Below, one piece after another: positions 43,150 to 64,000 of a stretch of 64,000 nt of DNA; position 1 is the stretch's first letter, and each line of letters opens with the position of its first letter. A program made the translations under genes and the position numbers. The notes under the pieces are model-generated. The model saw only the letters and a program-made list of their open reading frames with translations, did no database searches and was not told the origin of the DNA. Origin of the DNA: an uncultured Chloroflexia bacterium (GTDB lineage Bacteria; Chloroflexota; Chloroflexia; QHBQ01; JADMIH01); NCBI GenBank assembly GCA_963797095.1, contig CAWCNY010000001.1, forward strand, positions 256,001 through 320,000. Reading direction: 5' to 3'.

Positions 43150-44184
43150 TTATTTCGCGGCCGGATCGGCTTCGGCCAGTAAGCGCGAACACATCCGGTG
43201 CCAAGCCTGCACTTCCTGCAAGCCAATCGGCTCCTCGGTAAACGCCTGCCCTTCCCACTCAGCCGAGATCGTCCCCATGTAGGCGGTGCGTTTCAGGAGG
43301 GCCATGATCTCCTCGTAAGGTATGGAAGGCTCGTGACCCAACTCGTCCACATGGTAGAACTTGCCGTGAATATGCCGGGCGTAAGGCAGCAACTCCGTCC
43401 ACATCTCCACAGACATGTGGCCGAACATTGTCATCGCCGTGTTCAGCTGGCCCATCACTGCCGGGCCGGCGCCGAGCCTGGCACCTGCCTCATGCAGAGC
43501 ACCAAACTTCTCGGGTATGCTCTTGTCGGTGTACCAGATCTCTTTCACGGCCTGGATCAGTTTCTCAGTCCCCCCTGCGCGTCGCAAGTTGCCCCAGTAG
43601 CCTTCCGGAATCGAGCGCATGCTCGTACTGAAGTCGGGGATGAAGCCGAGGAAAGGGGAGCCGACACGGTCGTACATCTCGCGAAATGCCACCACATCCG
43701 GGTGATCAACTGCAAGAGGCGAGTGCAACTCGCACGCAAGCTGTATGCCATATTTTTCGGCGGTGGGCACCAGCTCCTCCATGACGTCAATTCCAGCGCC
43801 CGGCTGGTAACGGTATACGGGGAAGCCCATTTTGGCGCTGCTGACGATCTGCCGCTTAATGTAGTCCAATCTCTCGTCGTGCGTCATGAGGCGGTCCTTA
43901 CGCCTCCCGATGTCGGAGTTGCCACCCAGGCAGGAAGGGATGAGGCCATTTTTCTCGAGGAGCTCCCGGAAATGGTTCGCGGTCTCGTCCGAGACGTCCG
44001 GGAAGTCGCGGAAGCTCTGGAAGCCCACCACCTCCACCGCCGGGCCGAGGCCAAGCTCGGCTATCTTTGCCAACATCTCCTCCAGGGTGTAGAGTCGCTG
44101 CTGCCATTCGTTGGTCAGGCTGAACAGGGTAGTACCGAGCACCGGCCCACCTGGCCCTTTTGCTTCTTGTTGAGCCATCATCAA
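43150..44184 (-). CDS. C-glycoside deglycosidase alpha subunit 1 (xylose isomerase-like TIM barrel)
   Basis: CELHSP, IPDFS, HIHGKFY, SAEWEG motifs; start overlaps the stop of the beta-subunit gene. Confidence 0.8.
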   Translation of the reverse strand: MMMAQQEAKGPGGPVLGTTLFSLTNEWQQRLYTLEEMLAKIAELGLGPAVEVVGFQSFRDFPDVSDETANHFRELLEKNGLIPSCLGGNSDIGRRKDRLMTHDERLDYIKRQIVSSAKMGFPVYRYQPGAGIDVMEELVPTAEKYGIQLACELHSPLAVDHPDVVAFREMYDRVGSPFLGFIPDFSTSMRSIPEGYWGNLRRAGGTEKLIQAVKEIWYTDKSIPEKFGALHEAGARLGAGPAVMGQLNTAMTMFGHMSVEMWTELLPYARHIHGKFYHVDELGHEPSIPYEEIMALLKRTAYMGTISAEWEGQAFTEEPIGLQEVQAWHRMCSRLLAEADPAAK

Positions 44185-44594
44185 CCTCCACTCGCTTCGC
44201 TTGCGACCTGGGTGGTCGAGTATCTGGTGGGAATGGTTAGGAATAGCCCGGGGCCAACCGCTATATATGGGAAGCGGAGCGCGATTTCCGCCTCAACGGT
44301 ATGCTCCTCTCCCGGCTTGACCTTGCCGGGATCCTGGACGTGCACGTGAGCTGTGTCCTGCACGAACCAGAACTCCTCGACCTTATCTTCCATTTCCTGG
44401 AGGGTGAACTGCTTGCCGTTCACCTCGAAGCGTATCGCTCCGGGGTTGACCGGCTGCCCGTCCAAGCTCAAGGCGACCTTCTCGACGCACGATATCGGCA
44501 AGGAACGATACCAGTTCAGGCGAACCCCAACTTCGTATCCGTCGTTGTTGGCTCGCAGGCTGTTATCTTCTACAATGCGCAAATCTGCTCCCAT
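44181..44594 (-). CDS. C-glycoside deglycosidase beta subunit 1 (DUF6379-like)
   Basis: About 137 aa; VRLNWYRSLPISC..LDG..WFVQD..GEEH..LRFPY. Confidence 0.8.
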   Translation of the reverse strand: MGADLRIVEDNSLRANNDGYEVGVRLNWYRSLPISCVEKVALSLDGQPVNPGAIRFEVNGKQFTLQEMEDKVEEFWFVQDTAHVHVQDPGKVKPGEEHTVEAEIALRFPYIAVGPGLFLTIPTRYSTTQVASEASGG

Positions 44595-44610
44595 GCTTTG
44601 CTTACCTCCT

Positions 44611-45606
44611 TTACTCCGCAAGCAGGCGCGAGCACATATCATTCCAGGCCTTTACTTCCTGGAAGCCGATCGGCTCTTCAGTGAACGCATGCCCTTCCCA
44701 TTCGGCCGAGATCGTGCCCCTATATCCTGTGCTCTTCAGCAGGGCCATAATCGCCGAGTAGTCTATTGAAGGCTCCTGTCCCAGCTCATCGACGTGGTAG
44801 AACTTGCCGTGGCAGTGGCGCGTATATGGCAGCAGGACCGCCCAATCCTCCACCGGCATGCGGCCGTTCATCGAGATCACCGTGTGCAGCCTGCCCTCCA
44901 TCGCTGGGCTAACCCCAAAGCGCTGGAAGATCTCGTGCGCTGCGGCGAACCGCTCCGGCCCGCTGTCGATAGTGCGCCAGACCTCTTTGGTCTGCTCGAT
45001 CAGCTCTTCGGAGACTCCAGCCCGACGGGGGCCTTCCCACTGTCCCTCGGCAATCGACTTCATGCTTGAGCCGAAGTCGGGCACGAAGCCCAGGTAGGGA
45101 GTTTGCAGACGCTCGATAAGCTCCAACAGCCTGACCACGTCGGGCGACCTGGTCGTTTGAGGAGAGTGGACCTCGCACCCGATGTGCACGACCTCACGCT
45201 CGGCCAGAGGCAGTAGTCTCTCGTAGATGTGCGTGGGCAGGTTGGTGACGAGGCGCAGCACCGGAAAACCCATCTTGTGCGCGCTCATAAGCTGCCGCTC
45301 AACGTAGTCGATTATCTCGTCGTCGGTCAGGAAGCGGTCGCGCCACAGACCGTAGTCGAGATTGCCACCGAGCGAGCTTGCTACGAAGCCATATTTGTCC
45401 ATCAGGTCCCGCCAGTGGCCCGCGAACTGGTCCGACACATCGGGGTACTCTCGGAAGCTCTGGAAGCCGACCGCTTCAATCGCGGGTCCCAGCCTTAGCT
45501 CCGCGACTTTGGCCATCATGCTCTCGAGGGTATAGAGTCGCTGCTGCCACTCGTTTGTGAAGGAGTAGATAGAGACGCCAAGAATGGGTCCTTCTGTCTT
45601 CATCAC
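44611..45606 (-). CDS. C-glycoside deglycosidase alpha subunit 2
   Basis: CEVHSP, VPDFG, HCHGKFY, SAEWEG; close paralog of 43150-44184. Confidence 0.8.
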   Translation of the reverse strand: MMKTEGPILGVSIYSFTNEWQQRLYTLESMMAKVAELRLGPAIEAVGFQSFREYPDVSDQFAGHWRDLMDKYGFVASSLGGNLDYGLWRDRFLTDDEIIDYVERQLMSAHKMGFPVLRLVTNLPTHIYERLLPLAEREVVHIGCEVHSPQTTRSPDVVRLLELIERLQTPYLGFVPDFGSSMKSIAEGQWEGPRRAGVSEELIEQTKEVWRTIDSGPERFAAAHEIFQRFGVSPAMEGRLHTVISMNGRMPVEDWAVLLPYTRHCHGKFYHVDELGQEPSIDYSAIMALLKSTGYRGTISAEWEGHAFTEEPIGFQEVKAWNDMCSRLLAE

Positions 45607-46037
45607 TTTACTCCTGTCACGCCTGTCACGCCCGTGACATCTGATGCGACTTGCTTATCTGAGCAGGTGCTGGTCAGCACCAGGCACTTCCCCGGCCCGA
45701 CCACCATGTACGGCCGGCGCATAGCCAGCAGGGCGTCGACCTTGTGCTCCTCACCCGGCTTCACGCTGCCCGGCCGGTGAACCCGCACCCAGAGCGTATC
45801 TTGCACGAACCACTGCTCGTAGATCTTGTCCTCGAGCTCGGCGAAGCTGTAGCGGTGGCCGTTGATCTCGAAGATCATGTCCTTCTTGTCGATCGGCTGC
45901 CCATCAAGGCTGATCTCAAGCTGTTCAAGGCAAGACAGGGGGAGAGAACGGTACCAGTCGAGGCGAAGGCCGATTGCAAACCCGTCGTCCGTCGCCCGCA
46001 AGCTGTTGTCCTCTACGATGCGCATGTCCCAACCCAT
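45603..46037 (-). CDS. C-glycoside deglycosidase beta subunit 2
   Basis: LRLDWYRSLPLSC..WFVQD..PGEEH..RRPY. Confidence 0.8.
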   Translation of the reverse strand: MGWDMRIVEDNSLRATDDGFAIGLRLDWYRSLPLSCLEQLEISLDGQPIDKKDMIFEINGHRYSFAELEDKIYEQWFVQDTLWVRVHRPGSVKPGEEHKVDALLAMRRPYMVVGPGKCLVLTSTCSDKQVASDVTGVTGVTGVK

Positions 46038-46127
46038 AGTCGTTTACCTCCATGTAGCCCGGTTTGCCCCGCCTGGCTCATTTAGAGACAGCTCAGTCTG
46101 CGGGCACCTACTGAGTGGCTGAGCAGA

Positions 46128-47249
46128 CTATCCCAGTCGAATAGTGCGCCCCTCCCGCGAGGACTGGTAAATCGCCAGGATCATCTCCAGGCTCTTGATC
46201 GCCTCCTCACCCTTTATGTCCGGCTGCACCCCCGCCTCCAGACTGGCGTAGAAGTTGTCGATCTGCTGCTTGTGGCTCACACCCCAGTAGCCCCTTGGCG
46301 CTTTCCAGGTCACGGGAATCAGCAGCACTCCCCACTCGTTCAGAGTACGCATGGCTGCCTGGCCGGTGCTCTCGTTGAAAAAGGCCTGGAAGTCCGCCTC
46401 GTTCAGAGTCACCGTCGGGTCGTTGACAACGGTCAGCTCGCGGCCGTTCTTGTAAGTGATAATAGCTTTGTCGAACTCAAGCAGGGCTGTGCCGTGCTCG
46501 CAGTGTGTCTCCACAACCACGGGGGCGTTGTAGCTGAAGTTGTTGGTGGCGAAGAAGACCGACTTCAACCCGTTGCGGTAGGTGATCAGTCCCTCGGCTG
46601 TGTCTTCAGTCTCGATCTCCGGGTGGTTGCGGTTGGCAATAGTGGCTTGGATGCTGGCGATCGGATTGTCCACGAACCAGCGGGCCAGGTCCATCACGTG
46701 TATTGACTGGTCAATCATGAGAGAGCCGCCCTCTTTATCCCAGGTGCCGTGCCAGTCGCTGCGCTTGTAGTAGTCGGCGGGCTTGGTCCACGAGAGGATG
46801 ATGCGCTGCCCCACGATCTTACCCAAGCTTCCATCCGAGATGGCCGCTTTGACGGCCACTGACGCCGAGTTGTAGCGGTTCTGGCTGATGACGCCGAGGG
46901 TGACGTTGTTGCGCCGAGCGGCCTCTACCATGGCCCTTGCATCTTCCATGTTGATGGCCATCGGCTTCTCGGTGAGCACATGCTTGCCGGCATTCATGGC
47001 ATCTATGGCCATGGGCGCGTGCAGGTAGTGTGGGGTCAGGATATGCACAACGTCAATATCGTCCCGCCCTAGCATCTCGTGGTAGTCCTCGTAAGCCTCA
47101 CACCCCAGCAGGGCGGCTGCCGTCTGCCTGGCCTCGAATTTGACGTCACATACCGCCCTCACCTGCACATTGGCGAGCAGGTGCAGCGGGAAGGCGTGCA
47201 TACCGAAGATAGCACCGCAGCCTATAATCCCAACCCCATACGTTTTCAT
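46128..47249 (-). CDS. Gfo/Idh/MocA oxidoreductase
   Basis: GIIGCGAI, GKHVLTEKP, QNRYN, GGSLMIDQSIH, ETEDTA. Confidence 0.9.
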   Translation of the reverse strand: MKTYGVGIIGCGAIFGMHAFPLHLLANVQVRAVCDVKFEARQTAAALLGCEAYEDYHEMLGRDDIDVVHILTPHYLHAPMAIDAMNAGKHVLTEKPMAINMEDARAMVEAARRNNVTLGVISQNRYNSASVAVKAAISDGSLGKIVGQRIILSWTKPADYYKRSDWHGTWDKEGGSLMIDQSIHVMDLARWFVDNPIASIQATIANRNHPEIETEDTAEGLITYRNGLKSVFFATNNFSYNAPVVVETHCEHGTALLEFDKAIITYKNGRELTVVNDPTVTLNEADFQAFFNESTGQAAMRTLNEWGVLLIPVTWKAPRGYWGVSHKQQIDNFYASLEAGVQPDIKGEEAIKSLEMILAIYQSSREGRTIRLG

Positions 47250-48397
47250 CCTACAGTGTCCTCCTGTCTCATATGAACAACATCACCCGTGGCCGCCGAC
47301 GTGTAGATTGCCTCCAGGATCTGAGTGACGGTGTAGGCCTGCTCGGGCTTCACAACCAGCTCGGCCCCCGTCCTGATGCTGTTGAACCATGCCTCCTGCT
47401 CCTTGTACATGCCGGGGAAAAACTCCGGCGGCTGGCCGCTGCCGATGAATGTGCCGCCGAGTGCGTAGTTCTGGATGTACAGTCTGCCGTTGTGTTCGCC
47501 GTTCACCCGCACGTGGAAAGTGCGCTCGCCGCCGAAGTCGGCGGTACGCACCACCGGCCCGGGTGGTGGGTACATGTCCGCCCCCGCCTTCGTGCCGCAC
47601 AGAAGCGTCATAGTCTGGTCTGCCACGATCGTATTCAAAGCCCACGAGGCCTCCAGAATGACGGTAGCACCATTCCTGAACTTGACGAGGCCGAATGCGC
47701 TGTCTTCGACTTCGTAGGTGGCAGGGTTCCATGGGCCGAAACCATTTGCCTGGCTGCCGATCTTGCCAATCTTGTCGAAGGTCGAGCCGAGCACCGTCAC
47801 AGGCTCATAGTTCTGCAGCATCCACAAGGTGATATCCAGTGCGTGTGTGCCCAGGTCGATGAGTGGCCCGCCACCTTGCTTCTCTTTGTCTGTGAACACG
47901 CCGTGAGTAGGCACGCCACGCCTGCGGATCGCAAGGGCCTTGGCGAAGTAGATCTCGCCCAGCTCGCCCCCCTCGCACAACGACTTCATGAACAGAGTAT
48001 CCTCACGGAAGCGGTTCTGGTAGCCGATCGTGAGCAGCTTGCCGCTCGACCTGTAGGCCTCGAGCATCGCTTTGGCCTCGGCCGCGGTCTTGGCCATCGG
48101 TTTCTCGCACAGCACGTGCTTGCCGGCCCTGAGGGCAGCGACCGTGATCTCGGCGTGCGAGTTGTTGGGCGTGCAGACGTGTACCACGTCGACGTCGTCG
48201 CGCGCAACCAACTCCCGATAGTCCTCGTAGACCCCAGCATCGGGGGGACCGTAGCTCTTGGCTGCTGCCTGAGCACGCTCGACGATGATGTCGCAAAAGG
48301 CCACTATCTCCACGTCTGGCTGCCGGGAGATGCTAGGCAGGTGTTTGCGGTTGGCAATACCGCCGCACCCCACGATGCCTATTCTGATCTTGTTCAT
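47246..48397 (-). CDS. Gfo/Idh/MocA oxidoreductase, DgpA-like glycoside 3-dehydrogenase
   Basis: IGIVGCGGIANRKH, VHVCTPNNSH, CEKP, GYQNRFRE, RRRGVPT.GVF.DKEKQGGGPLIDLGTHALD; the pattern resembles DgpA-type enzymes as recalled (not searched). Confidence 0.85.
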   Translation of the reverse strand: MNKIRIGIVGCGGIANRKHLPSISRQPDVEIVAFCDIIVERAQAAAKSYGPPDAGVYEDYRELVARDDVDVVHVCTPNNSHAEITVAALRAGKHVLCEKPMAKTAAEAKAMLEAYRSSGKLLTIGYQNRFREDTLFMKSLCEGGELGEIYFAKALAIRRRGVPTHGVFTDKEKQGGGPLIDLGTHALDITLWMLQNYEPVTVLGSTFDKIGKIGSQANGFGPWNPATYEVEDSAFGLVKFRNGATVILEASWALNTIVADQTMTLLCGTKAGADMYPPPGPVVRTADFGGERTFHVRVNGEHNGRLYIQNYALGGTFIGSGQPPEFFPGMYKEQEAWFNSIRTGAELVVKPEQAYTVTQILEAIYTSAATGDVVHMRQEDTVG

Positions 48398-48487
48398 GTG
48401 CCTATTCCTTTCCAGCTAGGATTGCTTGAGTATGACAATGCCCAGGACAATGCTGCCAGCGTTACTCGGACACGTTGTCCGGGGACC

Positions 48488-48565
48488 TTGACCAGACAGC
48501 ACATTGCTGCTATAATATGCTTACACGTGTAAGCATATTATAGCAGAGGTTCGTTTTTGTGTCAA
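48488..48565. promoter_or_regulatory. Face-to-face sigma70 promoters overlapping a 40-bp perfect palindrome (candidate LacI operator)
   Basis: Plus strand TTGACC-N17-TATAAT (48488-48516); minus strand TTGACA-N17-TATAAT (48565-48537); palindrome CTGCTATAATATGCTTACAC|GTGTAAGCATATTATAGCAG at 48507-48546. Confidence 0.85.
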
Positions 48566-48627
48566 TTGCCTCAAACAACCAAAGTGCCGGACACTCGACC
48601 GGCAAGTCAGCACGTGAGCAACCAGCG

Positions 48628-49743
48628 ATGCAGGACAACCAACACGACCGACAACACGACCGACAACACGACCGACAACACGACCGACAACACGACTGCA
48701 ACTCCAGGCCCGAACCCGAACCTGAGCCCGAAGTGAGGCCGAAGCGCACGGGCCGACCTACCAGGGGCGACGTGGCTCGACTGGCGGAGGTCTCCGGCGC
48801 GACTGTGTCGTACGTGCTCAACGATGTGCCGGATTCCCGCATAAGCGAGGCGACCAAAGAGCGGGTGCGGCAGGCTGCAGCGAAGCTGGGGTACGTCCCT
48901 GACGAGCTGGCAAGCTCATTACGCTCCGGCCGCAATGATCTGGTGCTGCTGCCCTTTTTCGACTGGCCATACAACCAGAGTTCCATCTCCTTCTTGCAGG
49001 AGCTTGCCAGGCAGCTGTCCGGAATGGGTTATTCCGTCATGCTGCGCTTTTTCGGGCAAGAGGAGAAGCGTGCCCTGGCGCGCAGGATCGCCTCGTTTCA
49101 CCCTGCGGGTGTGATCGTTATGTCGGAGGAGCTGTCGCCGGACGACCGCGAAATCCTGGCTCGCAACGGCGTGCAGGCGGTGCTCGTGTATGGGGGAACG
49201 ACGGGGGACCCGGCGCGTACGGTGCCCATAGACTTTACCCATGCCGGAGAGCTCGTCGGGCAGTATCTAGTCGATAAAGGGCACCGCCGCCTGGCAGGGG
49301 TGGTACCGCGCGACCGGCGCATCCTCAGGATAGGTCTGCAGCGGTTCGAGGGGCTGCGGCGAGTAGGCGAGCGGTTGGGCGCGTCAGTTGAGCGCGTTGA
49401 CATGAGCTATGACATCGGTGAGGCGGCCAGGCTCGCTGCCGCATGGCAGCGAGGTCCTCGGCCCAGCGCCGTATTCGCCTATAACGACGAGTACGCCTTC
49501 CTGCTGCTCGCCGCGCTACAGGACGCGGGCCTGCGAGTGCCGGACGACATCGCCCTGGTGGGCTGCGATGACTTGACCTTATGCCTCCTGACCAGGCCGC
49601 GCCTGACGTCCGTGCACACCGGGATACCTGAGCGCATCCAGGCGCTGGTCACATACTTCGATGCGCTGATGCAGAGCCGGACGCCCGAAAAGCCGCCCAG
49701 TTTTGATTTGTCGTTCGACCTGGTGGTCAGGGAGTCGGCATAG
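48628..49743 (+). CDS. LacI-family transcriptional regulator
   Basis: PTRGDVARLAEVSGATVSYVLN..TKERVRQAAAKLGYVP, AVFAYND, VPDDIALVGCDD, PRLTSV, LVVRES; start uncertain (48559, 48628 or 48732). Confidence 0.92.
   Translation: MQDNQHDRQHDRQHDRQHDRQHDCNSRPEPEPEPEVRPKRTGRPTRGDVARLAEVSGATVSYVLNDVPDSRISEATKERVRQAAAKLGYVPDELASSLRSGRNDLVLLPFFDWPYNQSSISFLQELARQLSGMGYSVMLRFFGQEEKRALARRIASFHPAGVIVMSEELSPDDREILARNGVQAVLVYGGTTGDPARTVPIDFTHAGELVGQYLVDKGHRRLAGVVPRDRRILRIGLQRFEGLRRVGERLGASVERVDMSYDIGEAARLAAAWQRGPRPSAVFAYNDEYAFLLLAALQDAGLRVPDDIALVGCDDLTLCLLTRPRLTSVHTGIPERIQALVTYFDALMQSRTPEKPPSFDLSFDLVVRESA
48640..48696 (+). repeat. 12-bp tandem repeat CAACACGACCGA x4.75 (QHDR)n
   Basis: Direct reading; lies N-terminal to the LacI HTH. 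Confidence 0.9.
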
Positions 49744-49754
49744 GCGGGCCGGCT

Positions 49755-50095
49755 CTCGAGCTACAGCTGCTCAAGTTGTTCGTGTAAGGAGATATTTCGT
49801 CTACGCAGACTGCGAAGGCCCTCTAGCGCGCCCGCAGTGAGATTGGGAATGTATTAGTGGGTACCAGCACCAGCAGCACTAGCGCCAGCATCAGCATCAG
49901 CACTGATGCTAAACTGAATGTCGAGCGGTGGTGACCGTGACTACGATCGTGACTATGATCGTGACCGTGGCTATGATCGTGATCGTGACGCAGATCCCCA
50001 TGTTTTTGGGGTATTCTGTCGGCCTGTATGAGTGTATGCTCCCATTGCGGATGAAAACCCCGGACTGTTCGACCAGGGGGTAACCGGGCCGTGTC
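49755..50095 (+). repeat. Degenerate copy of 50683-50962 (small-ORF remnant plus conserved non-coding leader)
   Basis: Colinear matches, e.g. CCGCAGTGAGATTGG, AACTGAATGTCG, TCGTGATCGTGACGCAGA, TGTTTTTGGGGTATTCTG, TGTATGCTCCC, ATGAAAACC, TCGACCAGGG; this ORF copy has stop codons. Confidence 0.85.
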
Positions 50096-50140
50096 AGCCG
50101 TGACAGCAGTTCCTGTTTTGTCAAGCACAAGGAGGACGGA

Positions 50141-50527
50141 ATGAAGCACGTAATAGATCCGGAGGACGTAGAGAAGTGGCCCTTGGAGAAGCACATCGGT
50201 GTCACATCGAAGCTGCTTGCGGACGGCCAGAACATGACCGTGCTCTGGTCGCGCTGGGAGCCGAACGCCAGCGCGCCTGAGCACACCCACCCGCACGAAC
50301 AGATCGGTCTTTGCCTGCAAGGCGAGATCGTCTTCACGATAGACGGGCAAGACCATGTGGTGCGCGCCGGGGAATTCTACCACATCCCTCCTAACGCACC
50401 ACATTCCGAAAGGAACACCAGTGCAGAGCCGGCGGTTCTGACCGATTTCTTCGCGCCAGTCCGCAGCGACCTGCTAGAACGCCGATTCGAGCCAACAATT
50501 GTCGGACCGGATAGCTCAGGGCAGTAA
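50141..50527 (+). CDS. Cupin domain protein
   Basis: PEHTHPHEQ..GEIVF..IPPNAPHS..DFFAPVR; AAGGAGG RBS. Confidence 0.88.
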   Translation: MKHVIDPEDVEKWPLEKHIGVTSKLLADGQNMTVLWSRWEPNASAPEHTHPHEQIGLCLQGEIVFTIDGQDHVVRAGEFYHIPPNAPHSERNTSAEPAVLTDFFAPVRSDLLERRFEPTIVGPDSSGQ

Positions 50528-50597
50528 GGGCCCGCAGATGAAGGGCTCATCAGCTGGGCTATCGGGTGACTCACCAGAGAAAGGGTGAAGAGGAACT

Positions 50598-50834
50598 ATG
50601 ATAGTGAACATCAGGCGGCGCACTTTGGCCGGCGTGCCGGCTACCCTTGAGGTTGAGGAGGACGGATTGCTGACCTTCGCCCTCGAGCTGCAGATGCTCA
50701 AGCTGTACGAGCAAGGAGACATCTCGTCTATGCAGGCTTCGGAGACCCTCCAGCGTGTCCGCAGTGAGATTGGAAAAGTGCTGGGGCCCGCCAGTACAGG
50801 TACGGGTACGGATACGCAACTGAATGTCGGATGA
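50598..50834 (+). CDS. Small protein, possibly UPF0175-like HTH
   Basis: ALELQMLKLYEQGDISSMQASETL resembles the UPF0175 LY..G.IS..A pattern; GAGGA RBS. Confidence 0.4.
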   Translation: MIVNIRRRTLAGVPATLEVEEDGLLTFALELQMLKLYEQGDISSMQASETLQRVRSEIGKVLGPASTGTGTDTQLNVG

Positions 50835-55953: not shown

Positions 55954-55967
55954 CGTCTTTTCCTCCC

Positions 55968-56542: not shown

Positions 56543-57694
56543 CTATACCGTAGCCAGCTCCTCGCCCATGTGAATCACATCGCCGGACGCCGCGGATCTA
56601 TAGATGGCTTCCAGGATGAGCGTAACGGCATAGGCTTGCTCAGGCTTGACCACCAACTCGGCGCCATTGCGCACGGCGTTGAGCCAAGCCTCCTGCTCCT
56701 TGAACATACCAGGGAAGTCTTCCTTCGCGTCCGGGCCGCCGATGAAGGAGGCGCCCAGCGTGTAATTCTGGATGTACAGTTGCCCGTCGTTTTCGCCGTT
56801 GACCCTCACCTGGTAGCTGGGAGCCGACTGGAAATCGGCTGTGCGTACGACCGGTCCCGTGGGTGGGAACATATCTGCTCCGGCCCTGGTGCCACAAAGC
56901 ATAGTCATTGCCTCGTTGGCGACAATCATATTGATAGCCCAGGAAGCTTCAAGCACGATTGTAGCGCCGTTCTTCATCCTTACCAGTCCGAAAGCGCTAT
57001 CCTCGACCTCATAGTTGTCGGGATCCCACGGGCCCATGCCATTGGCCGGGCTGCCGATCTTGCCGATCTTGTCGAAAGTCGAGCCGAGCACGGTGTCAGG
57101 CTCGTAGTTGTTCATCATCCAGAGGGTGAGGTCCAGCGCGTGAGTGCCCAGGTCAATAAGGGGGCCTCCGCCCTGCTTCTCTTTGTCCATGAACACGCCC
57201 CACGTCGGCACGCCTCGACGCCTGGTAGCGAACGCCTTGCCCAGGTAGATATCGCCAAGCTCGCCGTTGTCGGCCATCTTCTTCATAAGGAGCGAGTCCT
57301 CGCGGAAGCGGTTCTGGTAGCCGATTGTGAGGAGCCTGCCGGTCTCTCTGTACGCGTCGAGCATCGCTTTGGCATCGGCAGCGGTCTTGGCCATCGGCTT
57401 CTCGCACAGGACGTGCTTGCCGGCCCTCAGGGCAGCGACCGTGATTTCGGCGTGCGAGATATTGGGCGTGCAGACGTGTACCACGTCAATGTCGTCGCGA
57501 GCTATCAAATCGTGGTAGTTCTCATAGACGGCGGCATCGGGGGTGCCGTATTGCTTGGCGCATGCCTCGGCCTTCTCCACTATGATGTCGCAAAAAGCCA
57601 CCATCTCAGCATCGTCGCGGCGCGCGAGGGAGGGCATATGCTTGCGAGTGGCGATAAAGCCGCAGCCCACGATACCCACTCTTGTCTTTTTCAC
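56543..57694 (-). CDS. Gfo/Idh/MocA oxidoreductase, DgpA-like (close paralog of 47246-48397)
   Basis: VGIVGCGFIATRKH, RRRGVPTWGVFMDKEKQGGGPLIDLGTHALD; shared PVVRTADF..VRVNGE..LYIQNY segment. Confidence 0.88.
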   Translation of the reverse strand: MKKTRVGIVGCGFIATRKHMPSLARRDDAEMVAFCDIIVEKAEACAKQYGTPDAAVYENYHDLIARDDIDVVHVCTPNISHAEITVAALRAGKHVLCEKPMAKTAADAKAMLDAYRETGRLLTIGYQNRFREDSLLMKKMADNGELGDIYLGKAFATRRRGVPTWGVFMDKEKQGGGPLIDLGTHALDLTLWMMNNYEPDTVLGSTFDKIGKIGSPANGMGPWDPDNYEVEDSAFGLVRMKNGATIVLEASWAINMIVANEAMTMLCGTRAGADMFPPTGPVVRTADFQSAPSYQVRVNGENDGQLYIQNYTLGASFIGGPDAKEDFPGMFKEQEAWLNAVRNGAELVVKPEQAYAVTLILEAIYRSAASGDVIHMGEELATV

Positions 57695-57747
57695 CTTTGT
57701 TCTCCTTTCATTATTCCTGTTGGTAGATTGGATTGCTATTAGCCTGT

Positions 57748-57781
57748 CTGTCCCACGGAGCGAGCTCCGGCTGTGGGACAG
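57748..57781 (-). terminator. Hairpin downstream of glucokinase
   Basis: CTGTCCCAC...GTGGGACAG stem. Confidence 0.45.
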
Positions 57782-57809
57782 GCGTAAATCCCAAGAGCCA
57801 CGGCTTGCG

Positions 57810-58805
57810 CTAGCCGGCCAGCGCCATACCATAGGCGGCAGCGCCGAGTAAGCCCACTTTCGGGTTCAAAATGACGCGTACGGGCACGTTGCTCAGCATT
57901 TCGCGGAATCGCCCCTTGCTGTGCATTGCCTCCAAAAACGCGGGCTTCTGCAGTTGCTCCACTATACGCGGAGACATGCCTCCGCTCAGGTAAAGCCCGC
58001 CCGTGGCCAGCACCTTGAGCGCCAGGTTGCCTGCTTCCCCTCCCAGGATAGCCACGAATAGGTCGATGACCGCACAGGCCAGGTCACACTGCTTCGTCGG
58101 GTCCTGCGCTGCCGCCAGAATAACGGGTGTGGGGTCGGCGGCAGCGGCCAACTGCTCCGCCAGCCAGTCAGGCTCCGGGTACCCAATCGATTTCAGGTAG
58201 CTGTACAGGTTTGGAATACCCAGTCCACCCGAGCAGACGCGCTCGACGCTCACGTGATCGAAGCCCTTTTTGTTCATATACTGCAGCAGGCCTATTTGCA
58301 GTTCGCCGACAGGCCCGAACGATACATGACTCCCCTCGCAGCCATAAGGGTGGTAGCGCCCTTCAGCCCAAGTTAGGAACCCTTCGCCAAGGCCGGTGCC
58401 CGGCGCCAGCACACCGATATTGCCTTCGGGGAGCGCCGTGCCTTCGTTGAGTGTAAATATATCCTCCGGCTGCAGGCTCGGGATAGCATTCGCTATTCCC
58501 TGCATGTCGTTCAGCACTGCCACGGCCTTCCAGTCGAATGTCGACTTGATTGTCGGTCCGTCGATTACCCAGGTCAGGTTTGTGATTTTCGCCCGCTGAG
58601 CGAGCACCGGCCCGGCTACCGCGAAGCATGCCGTATCAACGGGCATCTCTACGGTGGCCAGAAACTCGCGGATCATATACTCGAGGCTGGTATACCGCCC
58701 GCTCGGAAAACTGATTTCGGCCAAGGGCTGGCTCAACCCGGCATCGCTGGAGTAGACCGCCAGGATGGTCTTTGTACCGCCGATGTCACCTGCAAGTACA
58801 TTCAT
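57810..58805 (-). CDS. glk: Glucokinase
   Basis: LAGDIGGTKT, AVAGPV, TNL.W, LND, PGTGLGE, EGSH, ERVCSG, GGLYLSGG. Confidence 0.92.
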   Translation of the reverse strand: MNVLAGDIGGTKTILAVYSSDAGLSQPLAEISFPSGRYTSLEYMIREFLATVEMPVDTACFAVAGPVLAQRAKITNLTWVIDGPTIKSTFDWKAVAVLNDMQGIANAIPSLQPEDIFTLNEGTALPEGNIGVLAPGTGLGEGFLTWAEGRYHPYGCEGSHVSFGPVGELQIGLLQYMNKKGFDHVSVERVCSGGLGIPNLYSYLKSIGYPEPDWLAEQLAAAADPTPVILAAAQDPTKQCDLACAVIDLFVAILGGEAGNLALKVLATGGLYLSGGMSPRIVEQLQKPAFLEAMHSKGRFREMLSNVPVRVILNPKVGLLGAAAYGMALAG

Positions 58806-58807
58806 GG

Positions 58808-59770
58808 CTAGGCCCACCACATGGCTGCCGGCTGCTCGATCAGCAGCACGTCCTTGAGGAAGCTCACCGCCCGCTGGAACCCCTCGTCCACCGACGCCAT
58901 AGCGTCCTCGTGTTCTATGGAAAGCACGCCGTCGTAGCCCACAAGCCGAAGGGTGCTCACGAGAGTGCGCCAGGTTAGCTGGTCGTGGCCGTAGCCGACG
59001 GTACGGAAGGTCCACGAGCGGTGCAACAGGTCGCTGTACGGCTTGGTATCGAGCACCCCGTTGACGGCCACGTTGAGCTTGTCCACGAAGGTATCCTTGG
59101 CGTGCACGTGGTGGATTGCCCCGCCCAGGGCGCGTATCGAAGCTTCCGGTTCGATGCCCTGCCAGAATAGATGGCTCGGGTCGTAGTTGGCCCCCACGAC
59201 CGGCCCGACAGCTTCGCGCAGCCGCAAGAGCGTCTCCGGGTTGTAGACGATGAAGCCCGGGTGCATTTCAAACGCCAGCTTCACCCCGTTATCGGCGGCG
59301 AACTTGCCTGCTTCCCGCCAGTAAGGGATCGCCTTTTCCTCCCACTGCCATTTGAGCAGCTCCTCAAATTCCGGAGGCCACGCGCAGGTTACCCAGTTAG
59401 GGTATTTGCCTCTGTCCGAATCGCCGGGACAGCCGGAGAATAGGTTGATCACCCCCACGCCCAGTTCCGTCGCGAGGTGTACAGTGTCGCGGTAAACGCT
59501 GTCGTACTGCCTAGCTGTATCGGGGTCGGGGTGCAGAGGGTTGCCGTGACACGAAAGAGCGCTTATCACCAGCCCGCGCGCTTCGACGGCCTTGCGCAGT
59601 GCGGCAGCCGCCTGCTTATTCTTGAGCAGCTCGGCGGGGTTGGCGTGGGTATTGCCAGGCCAGGCGCCGGTGCCGAACTCAACGGCCTGCAGGCCCATCG
59701 AGGCCACATTGTCCAGCACCTCCTCCAGCGGGCGATCCTGGAAAAGCACAGTAAGAACTCCAAGCTTCAT
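58808..59770 (-). CDS. Sugar phosphate isomerase/epimerase (YcjR/IolE-like TIM barrel; candidate 3-keto-sugar hydratase or epimerase)
   Basis: SCHGNPLHP, FEMHPG, NYDPSHLFWQG, HVHAKD, LSIEHED. Confidence 0.85.
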   Translation of the reverse strand: MKLGVLTVLFQDRPLEEVLDNVASMGLQAVEFGTGAWPGNTHANPAELLKNKQAAAALRKAVEARGLVISALSCHGNPLHPDPDTARQYDSVYRDTVHLATELGVGVINLFSGCPGDSDRGKYPNWVTCAWPPEFEELLKWQWEEKAIPYWREAGKFAADNGVKLAFEMHPGFIVYNPETLLRLREAVGPVVGANYDPSHLFWQGIEPEASIRALGGAIHHVHAKDTFVDKLNVAVNGVLDTKPYSDLLHRSWTFRTVGYGHDQLTWRTLVSTLRLVGYDGVLSIEHEDAMASVDEGFQRAVSFLKDVLLIEQPAAMWWA

Positions 59771-59953
59771 AGACGGCCTCCTTTTTGCTCTCGTCGGTGA
59801 GCGTAACCATGCAATCACCGATCAAGGCCTAACTCCGAACATCTATTCCGCTAGGGTGAATGCTTCTCCTGCTGAGCACAAGGGTATATCGTTGCGGGTC
59901 TTCCCCTGTGTGCGCAGCACGTAGTCGCGTAGTAGTAGTATATGAAGCATTCA

Positions 59954-61183
59954 CTAAAGCGAATCAGATACGTCGGACACCGCTATCCACCGCTCCTCAC
60001 GGGCGCTGCGCAGGATAACTTCTGCCACCAGCCGCTCACGATGCCCGTCCTCAAAAGTTGGGAAAGTGGGCGCGGCCGCAACGTCGCCCCTGTCCAGGTA
60101 GCCATAGAAGTCCCGGCAAAGGCTTCCCAAAGGGTCAGGTGAGACATTGAAGGCACCCGAGGGGTAGCCGCCACTTGCAGCGTCACCTGCAGGGTCGCCG
60201 AAGTCGGAGCCCTCTTCCTCCGACGCGTTGGGTCGATCCTTGTGCAGCATCTGGTTGGGTCGATCCTTGTGCAGCATCTGGTTGGGTCGGTCCCAGTGCC
60301 CTATCCATAGCTCATGCGGCTCGTCAGCGCTCCATGCGATGGCCTCGCGCCAGCCGTCGATCTCATACGTAGTTCTGTTCTTGCGTCCGGCGCTGACCCG
60401 GCAGACAGTCAGGACGCTTCGCGCCCCATCTGAATACCTAAGAAAGACGCCCGCATAATCGTCGGTTCTGGCCTCAAGGCCATGCAGCTTCTCATCATCC
60501 TGAACTTGTGCCGGCGATCCCTCGCTGGGAGCACCGCTCCGTCGGGCGGGCTTGCGAGCCACCGACCAGAAGGCGCCCATATCGGCCATAACGGCCTCCA
60601 CTTCCAGCCCCGTGATATATGAGATCAGGTCGATCCGGTGGCCGCCCACGTCCAATGCAGAGGGGATCTCGTCCGCCGGCATCGGCGCCAGGCGCCAATC
60701 CTGCAAGCATGAACCTCGCACGACGTACACGTCTCCAAGCTCCTGGCTCCTAGCCAGCACGTCCACGTGCTGGCTAGGAGGGTAGTACCGCAGGTTGAAC
60801 ACCGTCGCGTTTGCCACCCGCTTTTGCGCCGCGAGCCGGGCCAGCTGATAGGACTCCCTCGGATTCATCGCCAGCGGAGTTTCGCAGGCTACATGTTTAC
60901 GAGCTTCCAGGGAGGCTCTGACCTGCGAGAAGTGCAGATCAGCTGGCGTGGTGATATGCACGACGTCGACCTCAGGGTCGACCAGTAGTTCCTCGGCCGA
61001 GTTGTATAGCCGAGCCATTCTGAATTGCCGGGCTACCTGCTTAGTCTCGTGCGGGTCACTGCCTGCAAGAGCCACGATGCTGTTCCCCAGGCCACTCAGA
61101 GTCTCAAGGTGCGACATGGCAATCGAGTCTGTGCCGATCACACCACGACGCCATTTTGTTCCGACCATCGTCACTCCCTTCAC
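59954..61183 (-). CDS. Degenerate Gfo/Idh/MocA paralog of 53596-54750
   Basis: Same layout but GVIGTDSI (Rossmann glycines lost), CETP instead of CEKP, internal deletion, 27-bp duplication at 60227-60289. Confidence 0.7.
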   Translation of the reverse strand: MKGVTMVGTKWRRGVIGTDSIAMSHLETLSGLGNSIVALAGSDPHETKQVARQFRMARLYNSAEELLVDPEVDVVHITTPADLHFSQVRASLEARKHVACETPLAMNPRESYQLARLAAQKRVANATVFNLRYYPPSQHVDVLARSQELGDVYVVRGSCLQDWRLAPMPADEIPSALDVGGHRIDLISYITGLEVEAVMADMGAFWSVARKPARRSGAPSEGSPAQVQDDEKLHGLEARTDDYAGVFLRYSDGARSVLTVCRVSAGRKNRTTYEIDGWREAIAWSADEPHELWIGHWDRPNQMLHKDRPNQMLHKDRPNASEEEGSDFGDPAGDAASGGYPSGAFNVSPDPLGSLCRDFYGYLDRGDVAAAPTFPTFEDGHRERLVAEVILRSAREERWIAVSDVSDSL

Positions 61184-61282
61184 TCGGCCCCCTCCCCAGT
61201 CAGCCCCAGCACTAGCGCATTTCCAACAGAGGTTCGCGAAATCAGGCTTCTCTTCCCCAGCAAATCAGCACGTAAGGGCCAG

Positions 61283-61687
61283 TCAACTCGCCAGGGTAAG
61301 TTGCTTGCTGTCCTGACCGAAGAAACCTTTCCCGCCGAAAGAGAGGATGTAGGAGATCACCATGTGCTGCCGCAGCTCCACCGTGTGCTCGCCCGGCGCC
61401 AGGCCGCCCGGTTTGTCCACGGTCAGGATGCCGACATCTCCAAACTCCCACTTCTCTTCCGTTTCGTTCTTGATTTCGCTCAAGCGGAAGTTGTGGCCGT
61501 TGATGGTAAGCGTTATCTGCTCGGGAGCGAAGCGCTCGCCGTCGACGGTGAGATCCGTATCGCCCAGCAGCGACAGCACGACGCCGCGATAATAGGGCAG
61601 GCGTATACCGATCTGGAAACCGGTCACCTTGCCCTCCTGCTCGACGTTGCGGAATACCTCACCCACGATCAAATACTTGTCAAACAT
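61283..61687 (-). CDS. C-glycoside deglycosidase beta subunit 5
   Basis: MFDKYLI..FRNV..GFQIGIRLPYYRGVVLS..VDGE..KWEFG..KPGGLAPGEH..ISYI. Confidence 0.87.
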   Translation of the reverse strand: MFDKYLIVGEVFRNVEQEGKVTGFQIGIRLPYYRGVVLSLLGDTDLTVDGERFAPEQITLTINGHNFRLSEIKNETEEKWEFGDVGILTVDKPGGLAPGEHTVELRQHMVISYILSFGGKGFFGQDSKQLTLAS

Positions 61688-61730
61688 CGTACATTTACCT
61701 CCCCTGCCCACCGGCAGGCTCAACTCGTGA

Positions 61731-62720
61731 CTATTCCTCGCCCAGTAGCCGCTTGAACATCTCCTGCTCGCGGCGTACCTGCTCCACGCTGTCCACCTCG
61801 TATACATCCTGTATATGGCGGTTGCCCTCGTACTCGCTGGACAGGTAGCCGCCGTAGCCCGCCTCCACAAGAACCGGGATGACGTCCTCGTAGGGGATGC
61901 TGTACTCGGTGTAGTCGGGCAGCATCTCGTAGAACTTGGCGTGGATATGGAAGATGAAGTCCTTTATCTTCAGCAGATCGCGCGGGTTTGAGTAGATGTA
62001 GTGGCCCGCCATACTCGCCAGGGCCACGTCTTGCTCGTTGCCGCCCATCGCTTTGACCTTGTCGACCAGGTCGTCCAGCGGTTCGTGGCTGTAGTAGCGC
62101 TCTACTATATACCCGACTATAGTCTCCTGGGCGCCGTCGCGCACGTAGCGCTCGGTAATTACTCGAGGGAAGCGCTTGACGAAGATGCCCATGTCGGGGA
62201 TAAACCCGAGGAACTTCGTGCCCGTGCGCTCTATAGTCTCGATGTGGGCCTTGATGCGCTCGTGGTCCACACTGAACGGCGAGTGGATCTCGACGCCCAT
62301 CTTCACGCCTATCTCCTCGGCGTATGGTATCGCCTTCTCCGCAATCTCAGGCGGTGTGTTTGCTATGACTCGGATTACCGGGCAGCCGAGCTTCTTCGCG
62401 AACTGCAGGTCGCGCACCACCGAGCGCAGCATTTCGTCCTCGTCCAGCAGGCGGCCCTGGTAGCGGTTGCGGTCAAGGAACATGTCGTGGCAGGTGGGCG
62501 TTGTGCCGTACCTCTCCATCCATTCGTGCCAGTTGTCGAAGAAGGCCCCGCCCGGGTTGGGGAAGCCGGGGGCCATCTGCTCGCCGATGATCTCTATGCC
62601 CTTTGCGCCCATCCTGGCAGCGGCGGCTATGCAATCTTCCAGGCTCATCTTGCGCAGGAAGTACTCTTCCTGGAAGCTGTACAGGCTCACTCCGCGTCTA
62701 ATGCCGGTCGTGTTGGTCAT
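61731..62720 (-). CDS. C-glycoside deglycosidase alpha subunit 5
   Basis: RGVSLYSFQEEY, GVEIHSP, IPDMGIF, HIHAKFYEM, EYSIPY, SSEYEGNR. Confidence 0.87.
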   Translation of the reverse strand: MTNTTGIRRGVSLYSFQEEYFLRKMSLEDCIAAAARMGAKGIEIIGEQMAPGFPNPGGAFFDNWHEWMERYGTTPTCHDMFLDRNRYQGRLLDEDEMLRSVVRDLQFAKKLGCPVIRVIANTPPEIAEKAIPYAEEIGVKMGVEIHSPFSVDHERIKAHIETIERTGTKFLGFIPDMGIFVKRFPRVITERYVRDGAQETIVGYIVERYYSHEPLDDLVDKVKAMGGNEQDVALASMAGHYIYSNPRDLLKIKDFIFHIHAKFYEMLPDYTEYSIPYEDVIPVLVEAGYGGYLSSEYEGNRHIQDVYEVDSVEQVRREQEMFKRLLGEE

Positions 62721-62784
62721 TGTTTTTACCTCTTCGCGGCCCTGGGCCGTAGAGCGTGGTGACCTGGCTTCCACCCGGCACGCC

Positions 62785-63714
62785 CTACTCGGACCGGGCC
62801 AGTATGCTATCGATATCTTTCAGTTCCTCGGGCGTCAGGGTCCAACCGGCGGCCGCGACGTTGGCCCGTACTTGCTCAGGCTTCGTCGCACCGGCGAAAA
62901 CCGAGGCCACGACCGGGCGCGCGAGCAGCCATGAGACCGCGAGATCGAGCAGCGACCGGTCGTGAGCTTGCGCGAAGCTTATGAGGTCTTCGACCAGCGC
63001 CAGGTTGCGCTCCGTGAGGACCTGTGAGGCCCGGTCGCCAGGATCAGCGATGCGCGTCCCCTGCGGTACAGGTTTGCCGGCGCGAAACTTACCTGTGAGC
63101 AGCCCGTTAGCGAGGGGTGTATAAGGCAAGAAGGCCAGCCCTTGCCTTTCGCACTCAGGCAGGAGTTCCTGCTCCGCGTCGCGGCGCAGCATGTTGTACT
63201 GGTTCTGGACGCTGACAAAGTGCACGCCCTGGCCCTGGGCGGCATCCTCCGCCGCGCGCAACTGCTCCTCCGTGAAGTTTGAGCAGCCTATCTCGCGCAC
63301 CTTGCCCGCCCGCACCAGATCGGCGAGCGCGCCCAGCGTCTCCTCAAGCGGGGTCCTGGGGTCAGGCTGGTGAAACTGGTAGAGGTCGATCCGGTCGGTG
63401 CCGAGCCGGCGCAGGCTGCCTTCCACCGCCTGCTGTATGTAGGCCGGGCTGCCGCCGCTCTCCGGCCCCGACGTGTGATGCCCGAACTTGGTGGCCACGG
63501 CCACCTCATTGCGGCGGCTGCCCAGCGCCCGGCCGAGGTACTCCTCGCTCTTGCCGGCGCCGTACATTTCGGCTGTGTCGAAGAAGGTCACACCGGCATC
63601 AAGCGCGGCGTTGACGACAACCGCCGTGCCCTCGGCATCGAGCCGACGGCCGAAATTGTTGCACCCCAGGCCCACCACCGATACCTGGAGCGATCCTAGC
63701 TTGCGAGTTTCCAT
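62785..63714 (-). CDS. Aldo/keto reductase
   Basis: VGLGCNNFG, FFDTAEMYG, ATKFG, SLRRLGTDRIDLYQFH, GCSNF, PLANGLLTGK. Confidence 0.92.
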   Translation of the reverse strand: METRKLGSLQVSVVGLGCNNFGRRLDAEGTAVVVNAALDAGVTFFDTAEMYGAGKSEEYLGRALGSRRNEVAVATKFGHHTSGPESGGSPAYIQQAVEGSLRRLGTDRIDLYQFHQPDPRTPLEETLGALADLVRAGKVREIGCSNFTEEQLRAAEDAAQGQGVHFVSVQNQYNMLRRDAEQELLPECERQGLAFLPYTPLANGLLTGKFRAGKPVPQGTRIADPGDRASQVLTERNLALVEDLISFAQAHDRSLLDLAVSWLLARPVVASVFAGATKPEQVRANVAAAGWTLTPEELKDIDSILARSE

Positions 63715-63755
63715 AAGGCCGGTATTCCTTTTATGCACTTGCGCCTCGCCATGGC

Positions 63756-64000
63756 CTAGGCGGCTACTTTGAGCACCTTCGTATCGCGTCCCGCGAAGGT
63801 CTGCTGCCAGTAGCCGATCCGCAGGTAGGGTGCGAGCGACAGTGTGTGCTCGCCCGGCTTGAGGCCGCCCGGCTGATCTATCGTCACGATGCCCACCTCG
63901 CCGAACTCCCACCGGTCGTTTTCCTCTGTGAGAAACTGGTCGAGAGTGTACGTGTTGCCGTGGAGAGTCACGCGGATCCGGTCACGCGGTATGCTCTCAC
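63756..64000 (-). CDS. C-glycoside deglycosidase beta subunit 6 (partial at window edge)
   Basis: RWEFGEVG..QPGGLKPGEHTL..LRIGY, clear paralog of beta 3 and beta 5. Confidence 0.8.
   Translation of the reverse strand, partial: ESIPRDRIRVTLHGNTYTLDQFLTEENDRWEFGEVGIVTIDQPGGLKPGEHTLSLAPYLRIGYWQQTFAGRDTKVLKVAA

Follow-up and report, generated by a model that had tools for sequence, protein, structure and literature searches.

The right-hand end of a 64,000-nucleotide stretch of DNA from an uncultured Chloroflexia bacterium (the window, w; positions 256001–320000 of contig CAWCNY010000001.1, here C1) carries genes for C-glycoside deglycosidases (CGDs), in which a TIM-barrel alpha subunit is partnered by a small beta subunit, and these genes continue past the window end. 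The locus is a genuine, exceptionally expanded C-glycoside catabolic island, an extreme form of a known kind, and the part that lies within the window is probably the first 21 kb of an island of approximately 47 kb from an uncultured Chloroflexia-like host. CGDs cut a C–C bond that ordinary glycosidases cannot, and what becomes of dietary and medicinal C-glycosides such as puerarin, vitexin, orientin, mangiferin and carminic acid depends on them; to our knowledge, only a handful have been characterized, and work on the rules for C6, C8 and aglycone specificity continues. Neither the enzyme family nor the logic of the pathway is new. The scale and contiguity of the array, its 14:3 ratio of lyases to oxidases, its conserved core and its host lineage are new as far as the literature that we searched goes; there we found no link between Chloroflexota and C-glycoside deglycosylation and no mention of DUF6379 (subscription journals and closed supplements were outside the scope of this search).

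Fourteen deglycosidase pairs in one array

The sequence-only reading of the window had described five TIM-barrel genes with ExH, D, HxHxKF and ExEG motifs, each beside a small gene, and a sixth small subunit at the window edge, and it had put the number of pairs at at least five, 'probably six or more'. All of the motifs are present and correspond to the Mn-binding and catalytic residues of AgCGD2. In Pfam scans of six-frame open reading frames (ORFs) of the window (23 ORFs, then 32 ORFs), the five complete small ORFs (w44181–44642, w45603–46037, w50996–51397 on the plus strand, w55968–56492 and w61283–61870) matched PF19906, formerly DUF6379, with E values from 5e-20 to 1.5e-37, each adjoining a gene that matches PF01261 (AP_endonuc_2), and the cut ORF at the edge (w63756–63998) also matched PF19906 (E 3.9e-15). 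We then examined the next 32 kb as two stretches (L015 and L016) and found that the array extends 15 kb beyond the window end, with eight further betas and nine further alphas, all on the minus strand, at L015:181–14940 (Pfam, 21 ORFs scanned). A search of the whole genome with the PF19906 profile gave 14 betas above the cut-off, all on C1 between 300265 and 334679 and with E values from 6.6e-18 to 1.4e-38, and PF01261 matches all 14 alphas, one of them in two pieces. Across the 6.0-Mb genome, locally built hidden Markov models (HMMs) likewise recovered exactly 14 alpha genes, in 15 ORF pieces, and exactly 14 betas. All 28 CGD genes lie inside C1:299153–335042 (approximately 36 kb). None of 14 control genomes had a match to PF19906, which excludes chance.

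Within the window, four pairs have the beta gene first and one has the alpha gene first; only pair 3 is on the plus strand, the other CGD genes being on the minus strand. Such variation in order and strand had been described. The stop of beta 1 (B01, WYRSLP type; w44181–44594; PF19906, E 3.3e-25) overlaps the start of alpha 1 (A01; w43150–44184; PF01261, E 1.3e-14), an AgCGD2-like class I protein with seven of the seven catalytic residues. Beta 2 (B02, WYRSLP type; w45603–46037; PF19906, E 2.8e-22) has a 4-nt overlap with the start of alpha 2 (A02; w44611–45606; PF01261, E 5e-11), which is also of class I, is 58% identical to alpha 1 and keeps the catalytic residues. Pair 3 belongs to a DfgAB/8qrz-like class and consists of beta 3 (B03, YYRG type; w50996–51397; PF19906, E 3.1e-36) and alpha 3 (A03; w51439–52398), again with the catalytic residues kept. 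In pair 4, a divergent beta 4 (B04, WYRSLP type; w55968–56375; PF19906, E 5.2e-20; at most 30% identical to other betas) precedes alpha 4 (A04; w54954–55953), which is frameshifted near w55229 and whose PF01261 match and catalytic residues are spread across both pieces. Pair 5 has the reverse order, with an 8qvc-like class II alpha (A05; w61731–62774) followed by beta 5 (B05, YYRG type; w61283–61687; PF19906, E 1.5e-37). Beta 6 (B06, YYRG type; w63756–64000) is cut by the window end; its whole gene, at C1:319756–320148, which matches PF19906 with an E value of 7.9e-36, stands without a neighbouring alpha of its own. The beta alignment clearly separates the WYRSLP and YYRG subtypes, as the sequence-only reading had it.

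Both subunits are strongly similar to solved CGDs. Among PDB chains, A01 matched 7dnm_A (E 2e-61) and B01 matched 7dnm_B, 'AgCarC2' (E 8.7e-16); A05 matched 8qvc_A (E 6e-120) and B05 matched 8qvc_B, a 'DUF6379 domain-containing protein' (E 1.4e-21); and A03 matched 8qrz_A (E 2.3e-88) and 7bvs_A (E 6.1e-76). A14b shows much the same distance to every solved CGD (E about 1e-41), and neither A04 nor B04 exceeds about 35% identity to any other alpha or beta compared. The PDB matches of B01 and B05 were only to the heterodimer entries that hold the best alpha matches and to the fused 8qrz chain. No NCBIfam family matched the four CGD alphas and two betas that we submitted. Together with the Pfam matches, the retained catalytic residues and the DgpA-like partners described below, these data support the earlier proposal that the genes are of the CGD alpha/beta type. 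In 8qrz_A (435 residues), the beta match lies at residues 4–116 and the alpha match at residues 141–429. We also observed single-chain members of 430–500 residues with an N-terminal beta domain (P0161, P0166, P0180, P0184, P0189 and P0238), which together with 8qrz_A indicate that natural beta–alpha fusions exist; the domain order of such chains agrees with the order of the genes in that class, beta→alpha.

To number the alphas, we aligned A01 with 7dnm_A and adopted the AgCGD2 numbering. In AgCGD2, E147, D179, H269, K271 and E305 bind Mn, and His149 is the catalytic base with Glu307 in support (Mori et al. 2021, PMC8563793). E147, H149, D179, H269, K271, E305 and E307 are invariant in 14/14 alphas, pair 4 being read across both pieces. 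The equivalents of the aglycone-pocket residues R123, S124, N248 and M249 are occupied by 7–9 different residues each among the 14 alphas, and variation within these proteins is greatest in the lid segment, where column entropy is 2.0–2.5 bits against a mean of 1.59. The C-terminal stretch of the betas also varies in length and sequence in the beta alignment, and presumably corresponds to the β7–β8 loop, which in the description of Mori et al. (2021, PMC8563793) adjoins the aglycone; both subunits build the pocket there. Because the alphas share their chemistry and differ in pocket and lid residues, it is most likely that each pair would handle a different aglycone or linkage position, and the pairs offer a useful comparative set for substrate choice. 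The sequence-only reading had proposed a substrate-diversified panel of lyases; this proposal is plausible, and we infer it from the varied pocket and lid together with the age of the paralogues and their close orthologues elsewhere, as set out below.

Accessory genes and a proposed pathway

Three DgpA-like genes (G2, G4 and G6), which are 66–73% identical to each other, accompany the 14 pairs. G2 (w47246–48397, minus strand), which we take as a C-glycoside 3-oxidoreductase of the DgpA kind, matched 7xr9_A ('DgpA') with an E value of 9.5e-119 across residues 1–372, i.e. over its full length, and 9m3d ('DgpA1') with an E value of 5.8e-121; G4 (w56543–57832, minus strand; local DgpA HMM, E 3e-261) and G6 are 73% and 70% identical to it respectively. 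G1 (w46128–47249, minus strand) is a separate GFO/IDH/MocA oxidoreductase by Pfam and adjoins class I pairs in all three arrays considered here, i.e. in the source genome and in two other Chloroflexia metagenome-assembled genomes (MAGs), G452 and G453, where its orthologues (72% and 66% identity) hold the same position. Pfam assigns two more genes on the minus strand to this family, namely G3 (w53596–54852) and G5 (w59954–61183), which are 50% identical, the best PDB match of G5 being 6a3f (E 4.9e-24). With the levoglucosan dehydrogenase model NF052479 (cut-off 650 bits), G3, G5, G2 and G1 scored 173.5, 107.5, 114.1 and 99 bits respectively, and are thus distant relatives only.

G5 is followed consecutively by AX (w58808–59818, minus strand; PF01261, E 1.1e-35) and a glucokinase gene (w57810–58805, minus strand; PF02685, E 7.7e-90; TIGR00749, 242 bits, above its cut-off). 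AX is a single-subunit xylose-isomerase-like TIM barrel without a beta partner, lacks the HxHxKF and ExEG motifs and is unmatched by the CGD-alpha HMM; this sixth TIM barrel, and the fact that alpha 4 lies in two overlapping frames, had been missed in the sequence-only reading. The gut 'alternative glycoside breakdown' clusters AL/BT1-3 combine a GFO 3-oxidoreductase, a TIM-barrel lyase, hydration of 3-keto-2-hydroxy-glucal and reduction, and their TIM-barrel lyases also hydrate 3-keto-2-hydroxy-glucal, if slowly (10.1101/2024.03.25.586180). This logic gives a plausible role for AX, G3/G5 and glucokinase, although, according to the available text of the same study, the AL/BT1-3 lyases did not cleave 3-keto-C-glycosides and the hydratase there is a DUF1080 protein. 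By analogy with that pathway and from the conserved gene order, our guess is that AX may be a hydratase or lyase acting on the sugar product.

The intergenic region between G2 and the LacI-family regulator gene (w48559–49743, plus strand; PF00356 and PF13377; its 56% identical orthologue in G452 is divergent from G1) contains two divergent, near-perfect sigma-70-like promoters with a TG extension (w48488–48565; 12/12 and 11/12 hexamer matches). A perfect 40-nt palindrome (w48507–48546; 18-pair stem), with the core TGCTTACACGTGTAAGCA, overlaps the two promoters and was not found again within the window or L015 with up to three mismatches. The palindrome is a candidate LacI operator that would serve the G2-G1-B02-A02-B01-A01 operon and lacI itself. 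The true start of the LacI protein is probably later than that of its ORF, because the helix–turn–helix begins at ORF residue 71. A perfect 12-nt tandem repeat (CAACACGACCGA, 4.8 copies) occupies w48640–48696 in the 5′ part of this ORF, probably upstream of the real start.

Past the last pair, L015:15012–19609 and L016:176–6078 together encode a 1,056-residue STAND-ATPase/TPR/LuxR regulator, a second LacI protein and an ABC transporter of the Opp/Dpp type with five genes; the gene for the STAND protein shares the strand of the array and is upstream of B14. At w33827–42355, immediately upstream of the array and encoded on the same strand, is an aromatic-catabolism-like cluster with a catechol-2,3-dioxygenase-like extradiol dioxygenase, a PRK06847-family FAD mono-oxygenase, a cyclase/arylformamidase-like protein, an SDR, an SGL lactonase-like protein, an FAA-hydrolase-family protein, an erythronate-dehydrogenase-like epimerase-fold protein and an S9 hydrolase. 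Judged by its adjacency, this cluster could degrade the released aglycones.

From these genes we propose the following pathway. Aryl C-glycosides would be taken up by the Opp-type ABC importer, and the C3-OH of the sugar would be oxidized by one of the three DgpA-like NAD-dependent oxidoreductases, as their very strong similarity to DgpA suggests. One of the 14 Mn-dependent alpha/beta CGDs, whose family and residues are established above, would then cleave the C–C bond of the 3-keto-C-glycoside, presumably with the conserved His as base and with the metal in the E/D/H/K/E site. AX might then hydrate the resulting 3-keto-2-hydroxy-glucal, a GFO enzyme reduce it and glucokinase phosphorylate it, a sequence suggested by conserved gene order, and the aglycone might, more speculatively, pass to the neighbouring meta-cleavage genes.

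Given the distant levoglucosan-dehydrogenase likeness of G3 and G5, and given that the beta-less AX could be an O-glycoside lyase, it might be argued that the pairs, or many of them, act instead on other 3-keto sugars (O-glycosides, anhydrosugars such as levoglucosan, or other glycans) in a general 'oxidise-eliminate-hydrate-reduce' pathway. We consider this unlikely. All 14 alphas are accompanied by PF19906 betas, both subunits resemble solved CGDs strongly, and B01 and B05 found no PDB chains other than those of CGD heterodimers and fused 8qrz, whereas the gut O-glycoside lyases were inactive on 3-keto-C-glycosides and the available text of that study mentions no beta subunit (10.1101/2024.03.25.586180).

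Two other enzymes are encoded within the array on the minus strand: an F420-dependent luciferase-like oxidoreductase (w52478–53431; PF00296; TIGR03621, 307.7 bits against a cut-off of 213) and an aldo/keto reductase (w62785–63714; PF00248, E 1.3e-78).

Classes, pairing and age of the paralogues

Judged from their sequences, the pairs form at least four deep classes, which have different closest matches among solved CGDs. Class I comprises A01, A02 and A11 with WYRSLP betas in beta→alpha order, class II comprises A05, A07, A08, A09, A10, A12, A13 and A14a with YYRG betas and is usually in alpha→beta order, and three pairs (A03/B03, A04/B04 and A14b/B14) are divergent. Paralogous alphas are at most 71% and betas at most 66% identical, with 20–35% identity between classes. 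Twelve of the 14 pairs are adjacent, on the same strand and unambiguous, and several overlap by 1–4 nt. B06 follows B07, B08 lies upstream of A08, and after A12 comes the class I pair B11-A11, so that by adjacency an alpha and a beta of class II are left as 'orphans'. In a mirror-tree comparison of all 40,320 class II assignments, the three based on adjacency ranked 139th, 658th and 3,470th (r 0.71, 0.62 and 0.44).

We also typed, by nearest paralogue, 150 adjacent same-strand alpha/beta pairs from other genomes and metagenome contigs, a procedure that separates the classes and not the partners within class II. At these loci, class I subunits were found with class I subunits in 26/26 cases, with beta→alpha order in 25 of the 26; A05-like alphas were followed by the beta in 75/75; and A14b-like alphas were accompanied by B14-like betas in 5/5. 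Four exceptions to co-typing look like an alpha followed by the beta of the next pair.

These results bear on the suggestion, made in the sequence-only reading, that alpha and beta subunits mix combinatorially. Mixing in trans would yield more than 14 specificities, with B06 and A12 as one case, and it would suit both the partnerless state by adjacency of B06 and one class II alpha (A12, A08 or A14a) and a pocket formed by both subunits (Mori et al. 2021, PMC8563793). However, the numbers of the two subunits are equal (14/14), the classes are strictly co-typed here and elsewhere, twelve pairs are adjacent with several overlapping by a few nucleotides, and a beta swap between PuCGD and EuCGD formed no complex in the available account of Mori et al. 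(2021, PMC8563793). We regard combinatorial mixing as unsupported and very improbable.

The paralogues are old. Orthologues found in metagenomes were 93% identical for A05 (P0026) and A12 (P0006), 89% for A13 (P0001), 86% for A08 (P0011) and 78% for A07 (P0017). The orthologues of A13, A08 and A05 and an A09-like protein share a 112,251-bp longest-contig entry, and those of the neighbours A13 and A12 share a 4,190-bp entry, so each set probably comes from the same contig. In a FastTree phylogeny of 191 alphas (FastTree supports only), the smallest clade with the eight class II paralogues also holds 52 sequences from elsewhere; A09, A12, A13 and A14a alone form a local group, of 14 leaves including the metagenome orthologues. 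The tree and the close orthologues elsewhere indicate that the array is old and maintained, and not a recent tandem burst. We found no clear one-to-one orthology with the pairs of G452 and G453, the best cross-genome identities (45–65%) being no higher than those between paralogues. The array looks like a birth-and-death expansion around a core common to two other Chloroflexia MAGs.

Alpha 4 differs from the other alphas in being interrupted. Its pieces, w55153–55953 and w54954–55253, correspond to Pfam profile positions 11–166 and 164–237, and the two frames meet near w55229, where there is no homopolymer run. In a soil run (X2), a single 151-nt contig (96% alike, depth 2) is one base shorter at w55229, so that the frame stays open into HVHGKF; given this open frame in a related contig, the break is either recent or an assembly error. 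Pair 4 also has a GC content of 0.50–0.51, against 0.56–0.66 in the rest of the array, and a third-position GC content (GC3) of 0.60–0.62, against 0.68–0.87. One alpha of the G453 array (contig C10, 158141–159188, L049) is likewise found in two overlapping ORF pieces, which may be another frameshift or assembly error.

The interrupted alpha, the atypical composition of pair 4 and the differing copy number of related arrays (5, 11 and 14) are what might be expected if the copies were largely redundant or decaying, through neutral birth-and-death or gene dosage without functional diversification. This we regard as highly improbable, as every catalytic residue is kept in 14/14 alphas, no other array gene was seen interrupted, and the relative's contig has the pair 4 alpha in an open frame; moreover, paralogues no more than 71% identical to each other are nevertheless kept singly elsewhere as 80–93% identical orthologues.

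Related arrays, known systems and significance

The two related Chloroflexia MAGs carry arrays of the same design on single contigs, with 11 pairs in 46 kb in G452 and five pairs in 34 kb in G453. Core orthologues lie in or beside both, i.e. DgpA (60–72% identity), G1 (66–72%) and the transporter (46–66%), with AX (73–75%) directly followed by glucokinase (61–62%) in both; the LacI orthologue (56%) was found in G452 only. These shared genes point to a core that is conserved while the number of lyase pairs varies. That the array is an assembly or binning artefact has next to no probability: the genome is a metagenome-style assembly (6.0 Mb, eight contigs, 93% complete) and none of 25 same-genus genomes is above the PF19906 cut-off, but the array-bearing contig of 592 kb contains no N, the related arrays and probably co-occurring orthologue sets agree with its design, and the copies are too divergent for collapsed or expanded repeats.

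The sequence-only reading had assumed one pair per cluster in known loci and had left open whether arrays would prove common. The first premise was too narrow. We fetched 43 loci of at least 10 kb and at most 21 kb, chosen by similarity to class II genes and including parts of G452 and G453, and counted one beta in 26, two in 12, three in four and none in one, i.e. two or three pairs in 16/43; in addition, six dgpBC clusters have been published for one genome (PMC11170127). Small multi-pair clusters are thus ordinary, and arrays of five or more are rare. Besides one sub-threshold match in the same genus, genomes above the PF19906 cut-off numbered 1/60 among relatives (the 25 same-genus genomes included), 1/400 among others of the class, 1/400 among others of the phylum, 5/150 among others of the order around G452 (with 3, 6, 1, 8 and 3 copies) and 2/400 among others of the phylum around G455 (with one copy and with 4–5 copies). 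Fourteen is the largest pair count among the roughly 1,400 genomes searched. Out of 1.84 billion, the beta profile matched 1,075 cluster representatives at E <= 0.001 and 633 at E <= 1e-10.

The nearest published parallel is Catenibacillus decagia, in which six dgpBC clusters and 11 dgpA homologues were read as a broad C-glycoside range (Goris & Braune 2024, PMC11170127). Both genomes thus hold many divergent CGD pairs, with the same interpretation as published; in C. decagia, as described there, the pairs lie in several clusters with separate dgpA genes that outnumber the lyases, whereas here 14 pairs form a contiguous 36-kb array with three DgpA-like genes in another phylum. The soil CGDs AgCGD2 (7dnm/7dnn), AgCGD1, MiCGD (CarB/CarC) and MtCGD, reported as alpha–beta heterodimers (PMC8563793), share the alpha TIM barrel, the small beta and identical Mn/His/Glu residues with the proteins described here, and the class I pairs A01/B01, A02/B02 and A11/B11 are nearest to these actinobacterial enzymes. 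They number one homologue in Microbacterium and two in A. globiformis (Mori et al. 2021, PMC8563793), unlike the 14 in one locus here, where the first-step enzyme is also a DgpA-like GFO protein.

As in the gut DgpA/DgpBC system of strain PUE (7bvr, 7xr9), oxidation would be followed by C–C cleavage, and G2, G4 and G6 are close to its oxidoreductase (E about 1e-119); pair 3 is DfgA-like (7bvs, Eubacterium cellulosolvens; E 6.1e-76). DgpBC and DfgAB are alpha4beta4 octamers of Firmicutes with one pair per operon, whereas the present host is Chloroflexia-like, with 14 pairs and three DgpA-like genes. The Microbacterium system uses the FAD-dependent oxidase CarA for its first step. The closest PDB chains to class II are 8qvc_A for the eight alphas and 8qvc_B for their betas, of the 8qvc/8qvd/8umc kind (a TIM barrel with 'DUF6379' chains), of which there are eight paralogues here, and A03 is nearest to the 435-residue fused chain of 8qrz/8un2 but is unfused. 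We take the 8qvc and 8qrz entries to come from a Deinococcus cluster with two CGDs.

The genomic setting fits acquisition of the island into a flexible region, without amounting to proof of it. Array GC3 is mostly 0.70–0.87, compared with a long-ORF mean of 0.69 (S.D. 0.07) for the genome; transposase genes lie 30–40 kb upstream; and synteny with congeners is largely absent, a nearby PFOR gene being found in one of five same-genus genomes, with only PFOR and its neighbour at least 55% identical within 60 kb. In that upstream region, a truncated GH31 glycosidase fragment adjoins DDE transposase genes (IS4/IS5- and IS240-type fragments; w3606–6371 and w12326–12898), which suggests a rearranged, flexible region upstream of the island. 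Several observations were made besides. At w31109–33646, a P-type cation ATPase is encoded by two same-frame ORFs separated by a single in-frame TGA (w32429–32431), which could reflect a pseudogene, a sequencing error or a read-through site. The gap that separates alpha 1 from the dioxygenase gene contains a 33-nt repeat (w42677–42814; 3.8 copies, 98% matches), and a 27-nt repeat (w60227–60293; 2.5 copies) lies within G5. In a search of sequencing runs, no run contained more than a 0.16 share of the sampled words, and matching contigs were too short and shallow to bear on habitat or expression.

Some findings weigh against reading the locus as a C-glycoside island of 14 working, specialized pairs. 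There are only three DgpA-like oxidoreductases for 14 lyases, a ratio that fits a promiscuous first step, itself an assumption; one alpha, in pair 4, is frameshifted in the assembly; and two alphas (A12, and A08 or A14a) and two betas (B06 and B08) have no unambiguous neighbour. The mapping of the class II pocket rests on alignment with AgCGD2 in variable regions. The best PDB match of AX, 2zds, is uninformative and its sole NCBIfam match, IolE, is far below the cut-off, and the ABC transporter belongs to the peptide/nickel-type SBP5 family.

Beyond this, we tentatively raise the possibility that the array is a natural enzyme library reaching past the known CGD substrates (flavone, isoflavone, xanthone and anthraquinone C-glucosides), with B06 and A12 pairing in trans and with A14b/B14 and A04/B04, two deep lineages for which no close solved counterpart was seen, and some class II paralogues perhaps cleaving C-glycosides or other 3-keto-glycosyl C–C bonds in compound classes not yet linked to CGDs. 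If so, Chloroflexia 'C-glycoside utilisation loci' would grow by adding lyase pairs around a fixed core for transport, oxidation and salvage, and such growth would resemble that of polysaccharide utilisation loci adding glycosidases.

For the biology of these bacteria, the locus points to uncultured Chloroflexia as specialized consumers of plant C-glycosides, and the conserved core (importer, DgpA, G1, AX, glucokinase and LacI) could flag similar loci elsewhere. With 14 intact-looking paralogues in one genome, it also provides a compact comparative set for specificity determinants and new biocatalysts.

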